From IMG/VR virus record IMGVR_UViG_2718218434_000001: DNA of 30,763 bases; one strand, 5' to 3'. Of the stretch, positions 4,771 to 23,618 are shown piece after piece. Made by a program: the position numbers and the translations under genes. How positions within the stretch are numbered: position 1 is the stretch's first letter; each line of letters starts with the position of its first letter. The notes below the pieces were generated by a model. The model was not told the DNA's origin, searched no databases, and saw only the letters and a program-made list of their open reading frames with translations. Source of the stretch: a virus (lineage: Duplodnaviria; Heunggongvirae; Uroviricota; Caudoviricetes).

Positions 4771-4827
4771 AAAACGGCGGCAGAGCAGTCACGGAGTAAA
4801 ACTGATACCGCCAAACGTCACCAGAAA
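4771..4827 (-). ncRNA. dicF: DicF small regulatory RNA (ftsZ-targeting), with 3' stem-loop and U-tract
   Basis: Minus-strand sequence TTTCTGGTGACGTTTGGCGGTATCAGTTTTACTCCGTGACTGCTCTGCCGCCGTTTTT matches the recalled DicF sequence; located between ydfB/C-like gene and dicB as in the dic operon. Confidence 0.8.
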
Positions 4828-5993: not shown

Positions 5994-6401
5994 TTATTGA
6001 TGCTTGTTGCGTTTGCGAGCCTCTAATAGCTCGGTGAACAGGCGATTAAAATTCTCAACGCGGGCGCGGAGTTCGCTGAGTTGTGCTTGTTGCTCTGATT
6101 TAGGAAGTGCGCGATACAAACGCAGCATCTCTAACTCATCTTCCGATAAGTCTAAGGCACTATCGAGTGAAACAGGGGGAGCTGGTGTTTTGTCCTCGTC
6201 GCCAAACAGTATCCAGGTTGGTGAACATTGCAATACCTCGGCGAGGCGATGCAAATTTTGCCCGCGCGGGGCTGTATGGTCACTTTCCCATAATGAAATT
6301 GATGAGCCAGATACGCCAGCAGCTTTGCTTAAACCGTTTTGACTTAAGCCTACCTGCTTACGTCTTTCTCTAATGCGTTGACCTAAAGTTTTCTCGTTCA
6401 T
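5994..6401 (-). CDS. dicA: DicA-like HTH (XRE-family) prophage repressor, 135 aa from internal Met
   Basis: HTH segment (LSQNGLSKAAGVSGSSISLWE) and LQCSPTWILFGDEDK motif shared with recalled DicA; divergent from a Cro-like gene. Confidence 0.75.
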   Translation of the reverse strand: MNEKTLGQRIRERRKQVGLSQNGLSKAAGVSGSSISLWESDHTAPRGQNLHRLAEVLQCSPTWILFGDEDKTPAPPVSLDSALDLSEDELEMLRLYRALPKSEQQAQLSELRARVENFNRLFTELLEARKRNKHQ

Positions 6402-6478
6402 ATTTAGATATCTTAATAACCCTTGACTTGAGATTCCTTGAGTGATTAGCATTGAGAAAACTCAATGCTGGAGGTGCG
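6402..6478. promoter_or_regulatory. Divergent promoter/operator region between dicA-like repressor and Cro/DicC-like gene
   Basis: 77-bp spacer between divergent start codons containing repeated CTTGAG / TTAGATATCTTAA elements; operator identity not verified. Confidence 0.45.
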
Positions 6479-8817: not shown

Positions 8818-10605
8818 TTAAGTCTGAGCCTCACTCTCTTGGCCATAAGTGGCTTGCCAGTATCTCGCCGTAGGGTTCATTAGAATGTGCAATACAAGCC
8901 ACCATGCAAAAATGCAGGGAGGTTGATTGTAGTAACCGGCAGGCACATATCCGTGAGCTAGTTGATTTCGTAAATCACCATAGATTTTATCTACCAGTAA
9001 GGCCTGAAGATTGCCAATTATGTCTACGCCGAAAGCTTCAATAATCAGTGGATTATCTAGTAATCCCTTGAGTCCATTTCGCTCTTGCGAACCGTCCCCG
9101 TGAAGCTGCGATGGTTCCTCACCTTTAATTTTAGCCACATATCTCAGACTATTTTCGATCTGGGGAATCAACACGTGGCATGCCGTCATAAAATCTCCAT
9201 TGAAACCGCAAACCATACCCTTGATGAAAAACTCTTCATGCCCAAACGGGATGAAGGGATGATTGATGAACATATCGCGAAAAAACGCCTCCGAGATTGG
9301 ATATTTCATTGTGATCTCATCTGTAGCAGGAATAATTTGCCCAGCTACTGCCAACTCATGGTCGATACGCATTCTCGTCATCATTATGGGCCAAATAACT
9401 GCCCCATTTGCATCATCAATCCCCAATCCTGCGGGTATGCGAGCAAGTGTCATTCCCTCATGATCAATATGTGTTGATCCAAACATCCAAGCTATGCTGT
9501 TGGCCTTTTGTTCTATTGCTTGAGCCTTAAGTCTCTCAATGCTGGTTGGCCGACAGACCAGCATCGCAAGTCTGAAAACCATATCAAACAAATCTCTTCC
9601 GACTACCCGACTCTTGGCTTGATGGACAATCTCACTAATATCTTGAGGGGGAGACTGAAGGATAGACATCTGGTGACGGGATTCGATTTGGTAATCACGC
9701 ATTTCTTCATACAGCGCAAGACGTTCTATTCGGGTTCCTGGAATATTAGCCAGTGCTTCAATAGCATTCTGCATGCAGGCTGCCGAAATCATACCGCCAT
9801 CTTGGAATTTTGATTCTTCCAGATGTGTATCGGCAAGAAGCCGCCAGAATTCAAACTGTGTATCTCTGTCACAGCACCTATTCGCAATCGGGATTGCGGT
9901 TTTACAGGCATCGACGGCAAATGAAAATAATTTTTGAGCCAGATAGTTTTTTGTCAGAAACAGGAGTTCCTGGGCAATAAAAGATGGCTCACTCACTTTA
10001 CAGTCGATATCGAGTTGCAGGAGTCGCAGCGGATAAGGTGAATCGCCTTGTTCTCTGGTACGTTCATACTCTGCTAGTAGATGTGCCGAAAGCTGATCAA
10101 ATTCATCCCTGAAATCAGTATTCTTTCGAAAAAAACAACACAGCCTAAGCGCACGCTCTAGGCGTTCTAAAGCACTAACCCACGTCCCTTGCGATGTCAT
10201 AATAGCTATACTGGACGCATAATAAGCACGGACTGCCAGCAAAGGAAAACGGATTCCACCAATTTTACGAACCCAAAGTGTATCAGCAATACGAGCTTGA
10301 AGTTCGGGTAGCTCTATCGTCGGGCAAAATTGAGAAAGTACCTCCAGCGACAACCCGTTAATGTCATCCGGAATTGCAGATCTACCTTGGCTGCTTTGAA
10401 AGCACGGACCAAATGGTACCTGTGGATTTTCGGGACGAAAGTGAAAACCGCAAATATGGGTTAGCAGTCTTATCTCCGCTCTTCCATCACCTAGGCTAGA
10501 AAGATACTTTGTGATATCAAAGCAGGTAACTGGCAGCTTACTCTGGATTAAGGGGGATAAATCAATAGTGTTAAGTTCGTCGAGGCTGATATTAATATCG
10601 TCCAT
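8818..10605 (-). CDS. Orphan 595-aa protein, unknown function; candidate single-gene anti-phage/abortive-infection effector with C-terminal HEPN-like R-x4-H motif
   Basis: Long ORF with strong RBS (AAGGTGA 4 nt before ATG); on the strand opposite to flanking early genes; flanked by noncoding spacers; C-terminal DLRNQLAHG fits the Rx4-6H HEPN signature; no other motif recognised. Confidence 0.8.
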   Translation of the reverse strand: MDDINISLDELNTIDLSPLIQSKLPVTCFDITKYLSSLGDGRAEIRLLTHICGFHFRPENPQVPFGPCFQSSQGRSAIPDDINGLSLEVLSQFCPTIELPELQARIADTLWVRKIGGIRFPLLAVRAYYASSIAIMTSQGTWVSALERLERALRLCCFFRKNTDFRDEFDQLSAHLLAEYERTREQGDSPYPLRLLQLDIDCKVSEPSFIAQELLFLTKNYLAQKLFSFAVDACKTAIPIANRCCDRDTQFEFWRLLADTHLEESKFQDGGMISAACMQNAIEALANIPGTRIERLALYEEMRDYQIESRHQMSILQSPPQDISEIVHQAKSRVVGRDLFDMVFRLAMLVCRPTSIERLKAQAIEQKANSIAWMFGSTHIDHEGMTLARIPAGLGIDDANGAVIWPIMMTRMRIDHELAVAGQIIPATDEITMKYPISEAFFRDMFINHPFIPFGHEEFFIKGMVCGFNGDFMTACHVLIPQIENSLRYVAKIKGEEPSQLHGDGSQERNGLKGLLDNPLIIEAFGVDIIGNLQALLVDKIYGDLRNQLAHGYVPAGYYNQPPCIFAWWLVLHILMNPTARYWQATYGQESEAQT

Positions 10606-11279
10606 GTCGTCACCTTGATGATTTGTTAATGCGGGGGCAACATTAATAAATGTACTTGAGACCGCAATTTGTCGATGGAGCCAACATTTATAACTATGTG
10701 CTTCTACCCTCTGAATTTTTACATGTGAATTGCTAGCTTGAATAGCTCTATCATTATATACGTGGCACTAAATTATGGCTGTTTTTCGCTCAAAGCGGAC
10801 TAGAAGGTTAGCTTGTGTCGGACTTTGCGTATTAAAAGAAGTGCTGGTGGTGACTAGTGGTTGTGCCCCATTTCCACAGAAAAAATCAGAGAAACTATAC
10901 CCAATAGTTGTATTGAATCACTGACGAGACAGCCTCATATTCATCAGGACTGGTCTACGTCCAATACAGGAGGTTGTGGTGCTGGTTCTCAAATGTGCGC
11001 TGGCTATTACGGCTGTAATGGCGATTTATTGTCTTGCTATTGTTCTTATGGATCGCCTTTCTGACTGATTTCATATTGGCGAGGTAACGGTAGTTAAGTA
11101 GAATGGCTGCGGGTGCTTGAGGCTATCTGCCTCGGGCATGAACACCAAAGGCAGATAGAGAAAAGCCCCAGTTAACATTACGCGTCCTGCAAGACGCTTA
11201 ACATTAATCTGAGGCCAATTTCATGCTAGACACATGTAGGTTAGCCTCTTACGTGCCGAAAGGCAAGGAGAAGCAGGCT

Positions 11280-11435
11280 ATGAAGCAGCAAAAGGCGATG
11301 TTAATCGCCCTGATCGTCATCTGTTTAACCGTCATAGTGACGGCACTGGTAACGAGGAAAGACCTCTGCGAGGTACGAATCCGAACCGGCCAGACGGAGG
11401 TCGCTGTCTTCACAGCTTACGAACCTGAGGAGTAA
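11280..11435 (+). CDS. hokD: Hok/Gef-family membrane toxin (HokD/RelF-like, 51 aa)
   Basis: Translation MKQQKAMLIALIVICLTVIVTALVTRKDLCEVRIRTGQTEVAVFTAYEPEE matches recalled HokD; structured leader upstream (10-bp inverted repeat CTATCTGCCT/AGGCAGATAG); no relBE upstream. Confidence 0.85.
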   Translation: MKQQKAMLIALIVICLTVIVTALVTRKDLCEVRIRTGQTEVAVFTAYEPEE

Positions 11436-13316: not shown

Positions 13317-13693
13317 ATGCGTGATATTCAGATGGTTCTTGAGCGTTGGGGGCATGGGCGGCTAATAATCATGAAGATGTGACCTGGTCGTCCATTGCCG
13401 CCGGTTTTAAGGGATTAATTCCTTCAAAAGTAAGATCTCGTCCGCAATGCTGTGACGATGACGCGATGATCATTTGTGAATGTATGGCTCGCCTGAAAAA
13501 AAACAACAGCGATTTACATGATTTATTGGTGGACTATTATGTCGGCGGCATGACTTTTATGGCGCTTGCACGTAAGCATGGGCGATCTGATTGTTGGGTT
13601 GGCAGGATGCTCCAGAAAGCTGAGGGCGTAGTGGAGGGCATGCTGATGGTGTTGGATCTCCGATTGGAGATGGATGCTGATTGTTCGAAATAA
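13317..13693 (+). pseudogene. Late antiterminator Q (Q82/QuuD-like), N-terminal frameshift at a G5 tract
   Basis: ATG at 13317 with GGAG RBS encodes [11 protein letters not shown] then stops after 21 codons; the rest of Q ([15 protein letters not shown]...) continues in the -1 frame from 13346 with no ATG; frames join at G run 13348-13352. Confidence 0.6.
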
Positions 13694-13699
13694 TTAAAG

Positions 13700-13790
13700 G
13701 AAAAGTTGCTGTCTGATTTTCATTAGTCTAACATTTTAAATGTTGGAATCGCAACGTAGTTATTATCATATAACAGCTTGTTTCCTGATT
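13700..13790 (+). promoter_or_regulatory. Candidate late promoter (pR'-like) / qut region downstream of Q
   Basis: TTGGAA ... TATCAT-like hexamers about 45 bp upstream of a strong terminator; by analogy with the lambdoid pR'-tR' arrangement; not verified. Confidence 0.3.
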
Positions 13791-13793
13791 TAG

Positions 13794-13821
13794 CCAGCCT
13801 CCCCAAAGGCTGGTTTTTTTC
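13794..13821 (+). terminator. Rho-independent terminator (tR'-like): CCAGCC-loop-GGCTGG + T7
   Basis: Perfect 6-bp stem followed by TTTTTTT, seen in sequence. Confidence 0.65.
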
Positions 13822-13848
13822 TAATAAGTATCATTTCGGGTGGGGATT

Positions 13849-15525: not shown

Positions 15526-15999
15526 CTGTATGCGATATCATCTGAAAGTGATGAGTTCCTGTATGCAGGATATTTACAATCGTAAAAACTACGCTATGAT
15601 GCCCATAGTGTCAGTTTGTATAAAAATCCTGTTCACGCTAAAGAAAACATTGAGATGCAATTTAATGTTGGTAAACATACCAGCCCCAAAAGATTTTATT
15701 CAATCTGTTTTTATATGAAGATATTTCAAGTGAATATTAAGAGCATATAATATTATTATTGCACGCAGCTATTATAATATAACAGATTAGTTTAATGATT
15801 TGTTTTTTGTGAGTTAAACACATGGTTTTATAGTTGTGATGCAATGAGATTTTCCTTATTGTTGAACTGGCGAATATTGATTTTCCACCTATACTTACCT
15901 GGTGTAACCCCAATGATATCAGGTGGATAATATGCCATACATATGTTCTATCATTTTGGTGTTGAACTCGTTTGTTGTCCGAATTGGTAAAGAAGATAT

Positions 16000-16644
16000 T
16001 TGTTTAAAAAAGGAAATGCTGTCCTCATTGAATACAATTTAAAAGATCTTTTTTCGTCAAATACAGATCATCTAATGATCGTAGATGTTGAGGAGAAAAC
16101 AGTTAATGATTTCTTTAAAAACTACACACTCTCACCTTTTTCTGTAAGAAGGTTTTATCCGTCATACTTGATAGTAGAATGTGAAGATTTTTCATTGTTA
16201 AGGAACTTGGTTGCATGCTTGAATTGTGATAGCAAAACCGTGGATGTAGTTAGAAATCAAATATCACTTGCATGTCTTGCTGTCTTATCTTCAGAGAAAA
16301 TAGTGCAAAGTTTTTTGTTCGGAAGTCTTAATAGCTTAGGTTGTAAAGTTAAGGCTATTATTCACTCGGATATCTCAGCGTCATGGAGACTTTGTGATAT
16401 ATCTTCAAGATTATATATGAGCGAGAGTTTGTTAAAAAGAAAATTAAAAGACGAAGGATTATCGTTTAGTAAATTAATTCTTGAAGAACGAATGATGATG
16501 GCGCAAAGATTATTGATCTACAGTAACCATACTGTCGGCAAGGTGGCGGGAATATGCGGGTATGACAATGCATCATATTTTGTAAGTGTTTTTAGAGGAT
16601 ATTTTGGTGTGCCTCCGCACCAATATTTATCAAGATTTTCTTAG
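16000..16644 (+). CDS. AraC-family transcriptional regulator (AppY-like); N-terminus uncertain (TTG start or truncated)
   Basis: C-terminal AraC HTH region (GYDNASYFVSVFRGYFGVPPHQY); preceded by a very AT-rich ~280-bp region. Confidence 0.65.
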   Translation: MFKKGNAVLIEYNLKDLFSSNTDHLMIVDVEEKTVNDFFKNYTLSPFSVRRFYPSYLIVECEDFSLLRNLVACLNCDSKTVDVVRNQISLACLAVLSSEKIVQSFLFGSLNSLGCKVKAIIHSDISASWRLCDISSRLYMSESLLKRKLKDEGLSFSKLILEERMMMAQRLLIYSNHTVGKVAGICGYDNASYFVSVFRGYFGVPPHQYLSRFS

Positions 16645-16892
16645 AAGATATGATGTGATGGCATTTTATAAAGTTATTTTTTGAAGTGTAAGATTATACG
16701 ATATTTTTAGCTACGCTAGAATAATTGCTGGCGTTTTTCTTTTTGAATAGATGTTCGGGCCTTACGCTAATGTAACTTCTTTCCTTCTTCGAACCAAACC
16801 GTGTACACCATCCGTTATCTGCGGAGGTGATCTTACCCAGCAATAGTGGACACGCGGCTAAGTGAGTAAACTCTCAGTCAGAGGTGACTCAC

Positions 16893-17192
16893 ATGACAAA
16901 AACAGTATCAACCAGTAAAAAACCCCGTAAACAGCATTCGCCTGAATTTCGCAGTGAAGCCCTGAAGCTTGCTGAACGCATCGGTGTTACTGCCGCAGCC
17001 CGTGAACTCAGCCTGTATGAATCACAGCTCTACAACTGGCGCAGTAAACAGCAAAATCAGCAGACGTCTTCTGAACGTGAACTGGAGATGTCTACCGAGA
17101 TTGCACGTCTCAAACGCCAGCTGGCAGAACGGGATGAAGAGCTGGCTATCCTCCAAAAGGCCGCGACATACTTCGCGAAGCGCCTGAAATGA
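16893..17192 (+). CDS. insE: IS3 transposase OrfA (InsE)
   Basis: HTH-containing orfA translation [29 protein letters not shown]... within IS3. Confidence 0.85.
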
Positions 17193-18055
17193 AGTATGTC
17201 TTTATTGAAAAACATCAGGCTGAGTTCAGCATCAAAGCAATGTGCCGCGTGCTCCGGGTGGCCCGCAGCGGCTGGTATACGTGGTGTCAGCGGCGGACAA
17301 GGATAAGCACGCGTCAGCAGTTCCGCCAACACTGCGACAGCGTTGTCCTCGCGGCTTTTACCCGGTCAAAACAGCGTTACGGTGCCCCACGCCTGACGGA
17401 TGAACTGCGTGCTCAGGGTTACCCCTTTAACGTAAAAACCGTGGCGGCAAGCCTGCGCCGTCAGGGACTGAGGGCAAAGGCCTCCCGGAAGTTCAGCCCG
17501 GTCAGCTACCGCGCACACGGCCTGCCTGTGTCAGAAAATCTGTTGGAGCAGGATTTTTACGCCAGTGGCCCGAACCAGAAGTGGGCAGGAGACATCACGT
17601 ACTTACGTACAGATGAAGGCTGGCTGTATCTGGCAGTGGTCATTGACCTGTGGTCACGTGCCGTTATTGGCTGGTCAATGTCGCCACGCATGACGGCGCA
17701 ACTGGCCTGCGATGCCCTGCAGATGGCGCTGTGGCGGCGTAAGAGGCCCCGGAACGTTATCGTTCACACGGACCGTGGAGGCCAGTACTGTTCAGCAGAT
17801 TATCAGGCGCAACTGAAGCGGCATAATCTGCGTGGAAGTATGAGCGCAAAAGGTTGCTGCTACGATAATGCCTGCGTGGAAAGCTTCTTTCATTCGCTGA
17901 AAGTGGAATGTATCCATGGAGAACACTTTATCAGCCGGGAAATAATGCGGGCAACGGTGTTTAATTATATCGAATGTGATTACAATCGGTGGCGGCGGCA
18001 CAGTTGGTGTGGCGGCCTCAGTCCGGAACAATTTGAAAACAAGAACCTCGCTTAG
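17189..18055 (+). CDS. insF: IS3 transposase OrfB (InsF), DDE integrase-type catalytic domain
   Basis: orfB in -1 frame overlapping orfA end, typical IS3-family organisation. Confidence 0.85.
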
Positions 18056-18095
18056 GCCTGTGTCCATATTACGTGGGTAGGATCAAGGTGAGGCT

Positions 18096-18311
18096 ATGAA
18101 ATCCATGGATAAGTTAACAACGGGCATCGCCTACAGCACCTCTGCAGGCAGTGCTGGCTACTGGTTTTTACAGTTGCTCGATAAAGTCACGCCCTCACAG
18201 TGGGCGGCAATAGGTGTATTGGGTAGTCTGGTATTTGGCATGCTGACGTATCTGACAAACCTTTATTTCAAGATTAAAGAAGACAGGCGTAAGGTTGCGA
18301 GAAGAGAGTAA
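18096..18311 (+). CDS. Class II pinholin (phage 21 S-like, 71 aa) with dual-start MKSM motif
   Basis: Translation [24 protein letters not shown]...RKVARRE matches recalled S21-type holins; RBS partly formed by the IS3 target duplication. Confidence 0.85.
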
Positions 18312-18315
18312 TCCA

Positions 18316-18867
18316 ATGACTCAAGACTATGAACTGGTTGTGAAAGGAGTTCGCAATTTTGAGAATAAAGTGGCGGTAACTGTAGCCTTACGGGACAAAA
18401 AACACTTTGACGGTGAAATTTTTGACCTGGACATCTCGCTGGACCGTGTTGAAGGTGCCGCGCTGGAGTTTTATGAGGCAGCAGCCAGAAGGAGCATCAG
18501 ACAGGTCTTCCTGGATGTTGCTGCCGGGTTATGTGAAGGGGATGAGCAGTCGCCGGAAAAGCGCCCCATAATTTTAGAGGCGCAGAATGTGTGGATAACC
18601 TACAAAGGAAAGCTACCGGGAAGAATTACTGGTTCTCTGAAGACGCCACCGACGGCATTGCGGTCAGAAAAAGATGATATTGAATCGCCCATTGAAAAAC
18701 TGGAGGGCAGCGTCGCTGATCTGAATAAAAAATTGTCGGTGCTGATTCCTTCTGAAGATGAAAAAAAACGCCGCGATGAGCAGTTTGCGGCGTTTTACGA
18801 TTATTGCATTGAAGTTACTCGCAGGAATTTTGTGAAGATTTTTGAGGAGGGTAAATCTCTTCAGTAA
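18316..18867 (+). CDS. Hypothetical protein (183 aa) inserted between holin and endolysin
   Basis: ATG at 18316 with purine-rich RBS, overlapping holin stop region; no recognised family. Confidence 0.5.
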   Translation: MTQDYELVVKGVRNFENKVAVTVALRDKKHFDGEIFDLDISLDRVEGAALEFYEAAARRSIRQVFLDVAAGLCEGDEQSPEKRPIILEAQNVWITYKGKLPGRITGSLKTPPTALRSEKDDIESPIEKLEGSVADLNKKLSVLIPSEDEKKRRDEQFAAFYDYCIEVTRRNFVKIFEEGKSLQ

Positions 18868-19188: not shown

Positions 19189-20216
<1,028 letters not shown>

Positions 20217-20579
20217 ATTAATATTAAATCGGATTATTTTTAGCGCTGAATGTGAAATTTAAATAAAAAGGACTCTTCCATGAGTCAAAATCCTTGAAAT
20301 CTTAAGGGTAAGATAAAAGGTCATTAGACAGAATGACACGTTTTATTAATAAATAAAGCTATTGTTTCATTCGTGTGTTTTTCTTTACAAAAGTAATCCT
20401 TGCTATGGTTGGTTAATCATGCGTTAATGGTGTTCTGGTTTGTTACAAAATTATCTGAAGCAGTCATTGTTATAATTTTATTATTTGTACCTCTTGAGAT
20501 TTCCTTGTTGGTTTTTCTCTCTGATATTTTTTTTCGGACCATTCTGCCCAAGGGCTAACTTCTTCAAAAGGTAATAATG

Positions 20580-20792
20580 ATGTCTAACAAAATGACTGGT
20601 TTAGTGAAATGGTTTAACCCTGAAAAAGGTTTTGGTTTCATCACGCCGAAAGATGGTAGCAAAGATGTGTTTGTCCATTTCTCAGCTATTCAGAGCAACG
20701 ATTTCAAAACGTTAACTGAGAATCAGGAAGTCGAATTTGGTATTGAGAACGGACCTAAAGGCCCCGCGGCTGTTCATGTTGTGGCACTTTGA
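20580..20792 (+). CDS. cspI: Cold-shock protein CspI-like (CspA family, 70 aa)
   Basis: Translation [38 protein letters not shown]... with RNP motifs; long AT-rich 5' UTR (20220-20576). Confidence 0.9.
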
Positions 20793-20991
20793 GGTAGAAA
20801 ATATTACAAACCATATTCACTTTAGATGCCCGTGTTGCCATGGTTCTCAGTATAGAACATCATCTTTTGATGTTTCTGACAGGAATCCTTTCGGGGCAAA
20901 ATGTATCTTTTGTAAATCAATGATGATTACATTTGATAATATTTCACAATACTTAAATGTTAGCCGTCTATCGTTAGATTTAAGAAAGTGA
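20776..20991 (+). CDS. Candidate small zinc-ribbon protein (CxxC...CxxC) downstream of cspI (YnfQ/YmcF-like?)
   Basis: ORF overlapping cspI end in another frame; contains CPCCHG and CIFCKS pairs; start codon uncertain. Confidence 0.3.
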
Positions 20992-21063: not shown

Positions 21064-21294
21064 ATGAAAAAAATAATAGTTTTTTTTAACTCTGAACCAG
21101 CAATGGTAGTGCCAGTGATGACCGGAGTTAACACCATCATGCGTGAATATCCAAATGGCGAAACAACACACCTCACTGTAATGGCTGCAGGGTTTCCATC
21201 TCTGACCGGAGATCATAAAGTCATTTATGTAGCAGCGGATCGACATGTAACTTCAGAAGAAATTCTGGAAGCAGCAATGAGACTCTTGAATTGA
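21064..21294 (+). CDS. Hypothetical small protein (76 aa)
   Basis: ORF from internal ATG (MKKIIVFFNSEP...); weak RBS; no family recognised. Confidence 0.4.
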   Translation: MKKIIVFFNSEPAMVVPVMTGVNTIMREYPNGETTHLTVMAAGFPSLTGDHKVIYVAADRHVTSEEILEAAMRLLN

Positions 21295-22692: not shown

Positions 22693-23187
22693 ATGGATCG
22701 AGAGTTAAAAAATCTGACGCTGAATATCAGTCAACTGGCGGCATTGTCAGGTGTACATCGCCAGACTGCTGCGGCAAGGCTGCAAAATCTACCCGTTGCA
22801 GGGGGGCATGAAAGCAACCTCAAGCTTTATCGGGTGGTTGATATTGTGTCGGCATTTCTGGCATTACCACCGCCGGTTGCAGAAGGCGAAATGGACGCGC
22901 ATGAGCGCAAAGCCTGGTATCAGTCTGAACGTGAGCGTCTTAAGTTCGAACAGGAAACGGCACAACTCATTCCGGCCAGTGATGTCAGACGGGAGTTTGC
23001 CATCTGGGCAAAAGCGGTCGTGCAGGTGCTGGAGACATTACCGGATATTCTTGAACGTGACTGCGGTCTGCAGCCTGCCGCTGTGAGCCGTGTTCAGTCC
23101 ATTATTGATGATCTGCGCGATCAGATAGCCCTGCGGGTGACTGAAGCAGGTGCGGATGATGAGGAGGAATTACAGCAGGAGGAGTAA
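22693..23187 (+). CDS. nohA: Terminase small subunit (Nu1/NohA-like) with N-terminal HTH
   Basis: Translation MDRELKNLTLNISQLAALSGVHRQTAAARLQ...; GGAG RBS; acidic C-terminus. Confidence 0.7.
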   Translation: MDRELKNLTLNISQLAALSGVHRQTAAARLQNLPVAGGHESNLKLYRVVDIVSAFLALPPPVAEGEMDAHERKAWYQSERERLKFEQETAQLIPASDVRREFAIWAKAVVQVLETLPDILERDCGLQPAAVSRVQSIIDDLRDQIALRVTEAGADDEEELQQEE

Positions 23188-23618
23188 TGCTGAATCAGGA
23201 AACCGCAAAGGCAGCACGAACCGATTCAGGTTATATCCTTCGCGCACCGAGACGAATGCGGGTTGCTGATGCCGTTGCTCAGTATATGCGGGTGCGTAAC
23301 CGCTGGTTCAGCGTGATGGCGGGGCCGTCTGTGCGCGTGAATGAATGGTTCAGCGCGTATGCGATGGCGGGTATGGCTTACAGCCGTGTGTCGACCTTCT
23401 CCGAGGATTATCTCCGCGTAACTGACAACAAGGGGAAAACGCACGATGTGCTGACCGGAAGTGATGACGGTCGCCACAGCAACACGTCTCTGGCGTGGGG
23501 GGCTGGCGTGCAGTTTAACCCGACCGAATCCGTGGCCATTGACCTTGCTTATGAAGGTTCCGGCAGTGGTGACTGGCGCACTGACGGTTTCATCGTGGGT
23601 GTCGGTTATAAATTCTGA
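23187..23618 (+). pseudogene. Lom/Ail-family outer-membrane protein remnant (C-terminal ~110 aa fused to unrelated N-terminal ~25 aa); deletion junction
   Basis: C-terminus ...SVAIDLAYEGSGSGDWRTDGFIVGVGYKF matches recalled lambda Lom end; no signal peptide; start overlaps Nu1 stop (TAATG). Confidence 0.6.

Follow-up and report, generated by a model that had tools for sequence, protein, structure and literature searches.

A complete copy of the insertion sequence IS3 has entered the 5' leader of a holin gene in the 30,763-nt stretch of viral DNA analysed here (hereafter the window), and its right end now lies 10 nt upstream of the holin ATG at 18096. We consider it very likely that this was an ordinary IS3 hit on the leader of an essQ homologue in a Qin-type defective prophage, late and nearly neutral, in a late operon that was already silent. 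An active-looking IS3 copy transposed into the pinholin leader, cut between positions -8 and -7 relative to the start codon and duplicated the three bases AGG. As a result, 1.26 kb of IS DNA would now part the lysis cassette from any transcription arriving from upstream, and the holin start would be detached from a conserved hairpin predicted to sequester its Shine-Dalgarno sequence. The insertion would be one of many IS3 hits on this prophage and would not be what disabled lysis. As the two orientations match, weak read-through from IS3 may reach the holin gene, but nothing suggests that it is selected.

A complete IS3 copy flanked by a target-site duplication

The element and its junctions comprise the following features.

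16825-16827, no strand: left copy of the target-site duplication AGG, single in empty-site genomes
16828-18085, + strand: complete IS3, 1258 bp, transposase co-directional with the holin gene
16828-16866, + strand: left inverted repeat of IS3 (IRL), paired with 18047-18085 by the repeat finder
16893-17192, + strand: IS3 orfA, InsE-like, 99 aa, HTH_Tnp_1 (Pfam), start set by alignment with K-12 insE1
17189-18055, + strand: IS3 orfB, InsF-like, 288 aa, with a DDE/rve catalytic domain, its frame shifted by -1 from that of orfA
18047-18085, + strand: right inverted repeat of IS3 (IRR, repeat finder), with inner end CCUCGCUU
18086-18088, no strand: right copy of the target-site duplication AGG, read directly

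By direct reading, IS3 extends from its left end TGATCTTACC at 16828 to its right end GGGTAGGATCA at 18085, with the termini TGATC...GATCA, i.e. 5'-TG...CA-3' ends; when 16500-18500 was read, the opening sequence was TGATCTTACCCAGCAATAGTGG and the closing sequence CATATTACGTGGGTAGGATCA. The terminal inverted repeats are imperfect, 39 nt long and 72% complementary according to the repeat finder. Both orfA and orfB are open, and an A-AAG slip site (AAAAG, 17155-17159) is present in the correct frame, where a -1 shift on AAG leads into orfB without meeting a stop. OrfB matches the Pfam families rve (5.1e-28), rve_2 (4.8e-22) and HTH_21 (1.7e-12), and identical copies carry the RefSeq label 'IS3-like element IS3 family transposase, programmed frameshift'. 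Compared with K-12 IS3A, the copy has one mismatch in 1255 aligned nt (99.92% identity), and its right-hand 150 bp are identical. An Rfam scan detected nothing within or adjoining it. Judged by its sequence, the element is IS3 itself, complete and apparently functional.

Since a 3-bp match alone would occur by chance about once in 64, the empty site is the decisive evidence for a duplication. A query made of 500 bp from each flank, fused through a single AGG, was searched in 5426 complete E. coli genomes, of which 337 contain 80% of it or more. In all 30 records listed, the fused flanks (...ATCTGCGGAGGTGAGGCTATGAAATCC...) were found as a single ungapped piece, 99.9% identical over 1000 bp. Alignment with one of these genomes, strain 127 (L001), proceeds to 16830 and resumes at 18086, with an overlap of only six bases, AGGTGA, made of the AGG and of a TGA that IS3 and the target share by coincidence. 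The sequence-only reading of this region, which had described a complete IS3 with inverted repeats and a 3-bp AGG duplication at 16825-18095, and had proposed the comparison with related genomes as a check, is thus borne out: the duplication was read directly, the repeats were recovered by the repeat finder, the coordinates are exact, and removal of IS3 together with one AGG yields GCGGAGGTGAGGCTATG, which is the conserved leader of an S21-type holin together with its start.

The target is the lysis cassette of a Qin-type defective prophage

Four genes follow the insertion on the same strand.

18096-18311, + strand: class II holin of the S21 type, a pinholin homologous to essQ, 71 aa; Pfam family PF04971 ('Bacteriophage P21 holin S'), 3.3e-34
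18316-18867, + strand: DUF1327/YdfR-family gene between the holin and lysozyme genes, PF07041, 3e-42
19189-19722, + strand: lysozyme, rrrQ homologue, 177 aa, PF00959
19719-20216, + strand: Rz-like spanin gene (rzpQ homologue), DUF2514

The holin match covers positions 1-63 of the 64 in the PF04971 profile, and in the alignment with strain 127 the gene shows no nucleotide difference from essQ. Its N-terminus, MKSMDK in the translation, contains the Met1/Met4 dual-start motif (MKSM), in which Met1 initiates the antiholin S71, with its extra Lys, and Met4 the pinholin S68 (PMC9636201). In the translated lysozyme, the N-terminus is hydrophobic and rich in Ala and Ser, and the motif E-x8-D-x5-T can be read; we infer that the enzyme is of the SAR type. 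The holin, lysozyme and Rz genes have all kept open reading frames.

According to the annotation of the empty-site relative, Pfam and Rfam, the window starts with an integrase gene (20-1315, - strand), an exonuclease gene and the DicF RNA (4775-4826). A repressor gene (5994-6452) follows, in which Pfam detects an HTH domain only and no peptidase domain, and then come Cro-like, YdaT and O-like genes, a 595-aa gene matching a candidate defence protein, the hok/sok RNA, ydfU and Q. Between Q and IS3 lie a lipocalin (Blc-like) gene on the - strand, a YbgA-like gene and an AraC-type regulator. These cargo genes are no sign of decay, because the viable phage 1H12 has the same Blc, YbgA-like and AraC-like layout between Q and holin. 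Downstream of IS3, the lysis genes are followed by cspI with its thermoregulator leader. The head and tail genes are all deleted: a DUF1441 gene directly abuts a remnant of Lom, its C-terminal half, followed by a tail fibre gene, a Pin-type invertase gene and ydfJ (29480 onwards). The best-matching genomes place the prophage at the ydfJ locus. By its gene content, this is a defective lambdoid prophage of the Qin type, integrated at ydfJ, which would be unable to make virions.

Consequences for the holin leader

Two features of the leader are now 1.26 kb apart.

16806-16829, + strand: hairpin CACC.AUCCG-loop-CGGAGGUG, a folding prediction, at the left junction
18086-18095, + strand: remaining holin leader AGGTGAGGCT, with a rebuilt 6-nt Shine-Dalgarno sequence AGGUGA

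In the empty allele, positions -12 to -5 read GGAGGUGA, an 8-nt perfect match to the 3' end of 16S rRNA. IS3 went in between -8 and -7, and the duplicated AGG restores AGGUGA, that is, six of the eight Shine-Dalgarno bases. Pairing with the 16S 3' end is predicted at -15.4 kcal/mol for the empty allele and at -9.9 kcal/mol at best for the occupied one; by this estimate the ribosome-binding site of the holin gene is weakened, not removed. The insertion had been described as lying in the holin ribosome-binding region; its location is correct, whereas the site itself is largely retained.

The leader of the empty site also precedes the holin genes of 1H12 and IdasGreatGrand, two isolated viable phages, and a variant of it, GCGAGGTGGGGTTATG, precedes those of phages cdtI, mEp460 and 4A7. 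In the predicted fold of the empty allele, the Shine-Dalgarno sequence forms the 3' arm of the hairpin listed above. Folding yields this hairpin for 1H12 and IdasGreatGrand as well; cdtI retains it with another inner stem, CGC/GCG (CACCCGC/GCGAGGUG), the arms of mEp460 have the cdtI sequences in the alignment, and in 4A7 the arms are present and the predicted fold differs. This hairpin may be a conserved translational gate placed ahead of the dual start of the holin. After insertion, it is re-formed at the left junction, by coincidence, through the first two bases of IS3 (TG), and is separated from the holin gene. In an RNA reading through from IS3, what remains of the Shine-Dalgarno sequence is predicted to pair with CCUCGCUU in the IRR.

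The Q gene and late transcription

Three elements upstream of the insertion bear on late transcription.

13317-13693, + strand: Q21-family antiterminator gene, frameshifted, PF06530, 8.6e-43
13792-13822, + strand: strong intrinsic terminator at the tR' position, about 100 bp after Q (terminator scan)
16713-16744, + strand: hairpin resembling a terminator, downstream of the AraC-like cargo gene and some 80 bp before the IS3 site (terminator scan)

The Q gene has a run of five G at 13344-13348 where strain 127 has six; a Q frameshift had also been mentioned in the sequence-only reading. The resulting -1 frameshift leads to a stop after 21 codons, and the residual ORF, 115 aa from a TTG at 13346, is devoid of the LERW residues that align with Q21. 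The intact allele of strain 127 (8988-9365 of L001) matches the Q21 structures PDB 6p18 and 6jnx (E 5.2e-9). A sequencing error in the homopolymer was ruled out, as the exact 115-aa product is encoded on 12 other contigs (NCBI, ENA, Logan). Four of these 12 contigs, the complete genome AP027528.1 and three metagenome contigs, reach the holin leader, and all four are free of IS3 there; AP027528.1 differs from the window at only two positions over the 4.1 kb upstream of the IS3 site. Because the same Q allele occurs elsewhere with an empty IS3 site, the Q frameshift probably came first. This order is the parsimonious one, but a homopolymer change could have recurred. Another homopolymer indel of the window lies at 15999. 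With Q probably frameshifted earlier and the virion genes lost, the insertion was most likely late and nearly neutral, and the late operon was very probably silent already when IS3 landed. The window spans about 30 kb, and a Q21-type Q from another prophage of the same genome could drive the operon.

In Q cassettes, the Q gene is followed by pR' with its pause element, a terminator and the late genes, and Q-loaded complexes ignore pause elements and terminators (10.1101/651190). By analogy, the late promoter pR' would have to lie within 13694-13791, an interval in which no promoter passed a simple scan. About 3 kb separate the Q terminator from the holin gene, and this path contains the second terminator-like hairpin at 16713-16744, so that a Q-driven transcript in this phage group must already ignore terminators. 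Since Q-loaded polymerase has this property, IS3 alone need not cut a Q-driven transcript, and following established Q biology it would not be expected to block Q-loaded polymerase. No terminator-like site was found by the scan inside IS3 on the + strand. In published reporter work, expression was undetectable when a promoter was placed beyond 150 bp from the IS3 end (PMC12095673), and the body of IS3 is probably polar for ordinary RNA polymerase.

Two earlier statements have to be modified in this light. The late operon had been said to be severed by a polar element: Q and the terminator that follows it (13792-13822) are indeed parted from the lysis genes by IS3, but polarity need not apply to a Q-loaded polymerase. 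Likewise, IS3 and the Q frameshift had been said to disable induced lysis together; both lesions are real, but the role of disabling event probably does not fall to IS3, the same Q allele being found elsewhere with an empty site.

Outward transcription from IS3

IS3 has been drawn with two promoters of the same direction, P3L and the outward P3R, in a paper that cites Charlier et al. 1982 for this (PMC8860574). In the orientation observed in the window, P3R would face the holin gene. A reporter study selected the last 150 bp of IS3 precisely because promoter activity could not be detected in them, and it also describes a likely pause site in the right end (PMC12095673). A consensus scan of the + strand of IS3 gave only two weak matches, 9 of 12 positions each, at 17800-17827 and 17917-17946; the promoter matches in the region numbered 15, which does not clearly exceed the 10.8 +/- 3.0 expected from shuffling. 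A hybrid promoter across the junction between IS3 and the holin gene is implausible, as the ATG comes only 10 nt after the IS end. Where other genomes carry IS3 no more than about 1.6 kb from the locus, it has the same orientation in 31 cases and the opposite one in 33, so that a promoter-facing orientation shows no sign of being favoured. The lysis genes may not be silent, given the reported P3R. The suggestion that their expression now depends on IS3 outward transcription is possible and finds no support in the inactive terminal 150 bp or in the balanced orientations.

Other IS3 insertions in the prophage

In other genomes, IS3 has arrived independently at several nearby positions: 62 bp upstream of the holin start codon in JX2, at about codon 9 of the holin gene, with a deletion, in Z1324SEC0014, in the middle of the holin gene with the duplication GTC in OW1E2, in the DUF1327 gene in C9, and in the AraC-like and YbgA-like genes in further genomes. 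A control segment, the exonuclease gene of the same prophage, had IS3 nearby in 44 genomes. A hotspot in the holin leader was ruled out by this control and by the two orientations at varied positions (31 against 33). IS3 has been collected across the whole prophage, and the holin leader is not special.

The IS3 junctions of the window had no single-piece match in the 5426 complete E. coli genomes: all matches covering the junction queries in full consisted of two joined pieces, with IS3 elsewhere, from 54 bp upstream to 419 bp downstream. A scan for exact junction 30-mers gave no match in GTDB species representatives and JGI metagenome contigs. As far as these collections reach, the insertion is private to the source genome.

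Alternative explanations

This privacy is what would be expected if the assembler had misplaced a repeat, as the exact junctions were missing from all three collections searched. Such an artefact is nevertheless extremely improbable: the ends are canonical and exact, the 3-bp duplication is perfect and single in the empty site, and both flanks are colinear with relatives, whereas a misplaced repeat would create no target duplication; private IS insertions are, moreover, common. One may also propose that IS3 was the primary lesion, selected because it silenced a still dangerous lysis cassette and so protected the host. The position directly upstream of the holin gene fits this proposal, as do the insertions within the holin gene in OW1E2 and Z1324SEC0014 and 62 bp upstream of its start codon in JX2. 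We find it improbable all the same, as several assemblies combine the frameshifted Q allele with an empty IS3 site, so that the operon was probably off already, IS3 copies are also found nearby in the AraC-like and YbgA-like cargo genes, the exonuclease control shows that the holin region is not preferred, and the insertion has spared the reading frames and most of the Shine-Dalgarno sequence.

Conversely, IS3 might have switched the cassette on. After loss of Q, read-through from P3L or transcription from P3R would yield pinholin and lysozyme at a low constitutive level, used or tolerated by the host. The co-orientation of IS3 and the holin gene 10 nt apart, the usable Shine-Dalgarno sequence that is left and the freedom from terminator-like sites in the scan from orfB to the holin gene are all compatible with this explanation. 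It is unlikely, since the right 150 bp are identical to those of K-12 IS3A, promoters more than 150 bp from the IS3 end had no detectable output in the reporter work (PMC12095673), opposite orientations are as frequent as same ones in other genomes, and in the read-through RNA the IRR is predicted to base-pair with what is left of the Shine-Dalgarno sequence. A stronger version, in which the cut hairpin and the co-oriented IS3 would together have rewired a Q-dependent, translationally gated cassette into a weakly constitutive, IS3-transcribed one exploited by the host, is very unlikely. If it were true, the rewired cassette might serve envelope remodelling, vesicle release or DNA release, and the insertion would represent an IS-mediated step in the domestication of a prophage lysis module; were IS3 simply driving the cassette, this would be a small case of IS-mediated rewiring of prophage genes.

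Under the preferred explanation, an ordinary and nearly neutral IS3 hit, the event is of an already known kind, an IS3 insertion in a cryptic prophage, and has little importance beyond correct annotation, being one more private insertion in a decaying prophage. For annotation, the lysis genes should count as intact frames preceded by an IS and not as disrupted. The case also illustrates that comparison with relatives can reveal the order of decay, here probably the Q frameshift and then IS3, and that a 3-bp duplication can preserve most of a ribosome-binding site despite an insertion inside it.

Comparison with known systems

The element resembles the IS3 copies of K-12 (IS3A-E; insE/insF) in its length of 1258 bp, TG...CA ends, 39-nt imperfect repeats, A-AAG -1 frameshift between orfA and orfB, DDE (rve) transposase and 3-bp duplication. 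It differs in its insertion site alone, the junction of the window being in none of the collections searched. The arrangement, a co-directional IS3 just upstream of a gene without transcription of its own, recalls the 'mobile promoter' IS3 at argE (Charlier, Piette and Glansdorff 1982, as presented in PMC8860574 and PMC12095673); in the window, by contrast, no evidence of activation was found, and the terminal 150 bp are inactive in the reporter data.

With the Q21 antitermination cassette, the locus shares a Q gene matching the Q21 structures and a terminator after it, but Q is frameshifted here, and 3 kb of cargo genes and IS3 lie between Q and the holin gene. The likeness to the phage 21 lysis cassette (S21 pinholin S68/S71, SAR endolysin R21) lies in the Pfam family of the holin, its 71 aa and the MKSM motif, whereas the window has a DUF1327 gene between holin and lysozyme.

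A further counterpart is the cryptic prophage Qin of E. coli, with the gene order essQ-ydfR-rrrQ-rzpQ-cspI in K-12, dicB/DicF and integration at ydfJ. Both share the ydfJ site, DicF, a match in the dicB region, hok/sok, ydfU and Q, and, on the lysis side, the essQ-type holin, YdfR, rrrQ, rzpQ and cspI. The variant in the window is distinguished by its Blc, YbgA-like and AraC-like cargo, a PDC-S39-like gene, IS3 and deletions of its own.

Holin leader and left IS3 junction

The holin gene interrupted in its leader by IS3 is of the S21 type, and folding of the leader, rejoined across the insertion, predicts a structure involving the ribosome-binding region:

16806-16829 plus 18089-18090, hairpin sequestering the Shine-Dalgarno sequence, upstream of the S21-type holin gene

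Among phages 1H12, IdasGreatGrand, cdtI, mEp460 and 4A7, whose upstream sequences are otherwise unrelated, this hairpin is retained before the S21-type holin genes (as visible arms in mEp460 and 4A7, the predicted fold differing in 4A7), and its inner stem shows compensatory changes (UCCG/CGGA versus CGC/GCG). In a second, small predicted hairpin, the two holin start codons are paired. The conserved hairpin probably serves in translational control of the dual start.

At the left junction of IS3 (16820-16832, GGAGGTGATC), 10 nt are perfectly complementary to the 3' end of 16S rRNA, with a predicted duplex energy of -19.8 kcal/mol. No start codon was found at a usable distance after this complement, which arose by chance where the target sequence met the terminus of IS3.

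Q antiterminator gene

The gene of the Q21-family antiterminator (13317-13693) carries a -1 frameshift at 13344-13348, where five G residues are found versus the six expected. This frameshifted allele, with its 115-aa ORF, is also present on 12 further public contigs, among them the complete genome AP027528.1. The IS3 site was empty in all four of the Q-frameshift contigs long enough to span it.

Cargo genes and other parts of the prophage

A 237-aa cargo regulator of the AraC type (about 15932-16644) is frameshifted near codon 23 by the loss of one T from a T run at 15999. The loss is private to the window when compared with strain 127 (a complete E. coli genome with an empty IS3 site), AP027528.1 and two metagenome contigs aligned there; the gene could be a real pseudogene, or the missing T a homopolymer sequencing error. 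A second cargo gene is absent from the corresponding position of strain 127:

8818-10605, minus strand, DUF7380/DUF4209 protein of 595 aa, with a match at E 2e-102 to PDC-S39, a candidate defence family in PADLOC

The Rfam matches are expected components of a Qin-type prophage:

4775-4826, minus strand, DicF sRNA
11111-11285, plus strand, sok antitoxin RNA (hok/sok)
20422-20838, plus strand, cspA-type thermoregulator leader, ahead of cspI

In the ynfN region, the window has one additional T at 21080 relative to strain 127, where RefSeq labels this region "frameshifted"; on this sequence comparison, the window may therefore hold an intact ynfN.

The terminase, head and tail genes appear to have been lost through one deletion, at the following remnant:

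22693-23187, DUF1441 gene
23187-23618, ORF immediately after it, in which Lom is reduced to its C-terminal half (positions 89-199 of the profile)

IS3 in other Qin-type prophages

Among complete E. coli genomes, the IS3 copies that Qin-type prophages have acquired are spread over many positions, and they occur in either orientation. Genomes with IS3 nearby numbered 31 and 33 near the holin gene, and 44 near the exonuclease gene. IS3 in the opposite orientation lies near a YbgA-like gene in E. coli B REL606 and ATCC 8739, and in JX2 an IS1 adjoins IS3 and the AraC-like gene is deleted.
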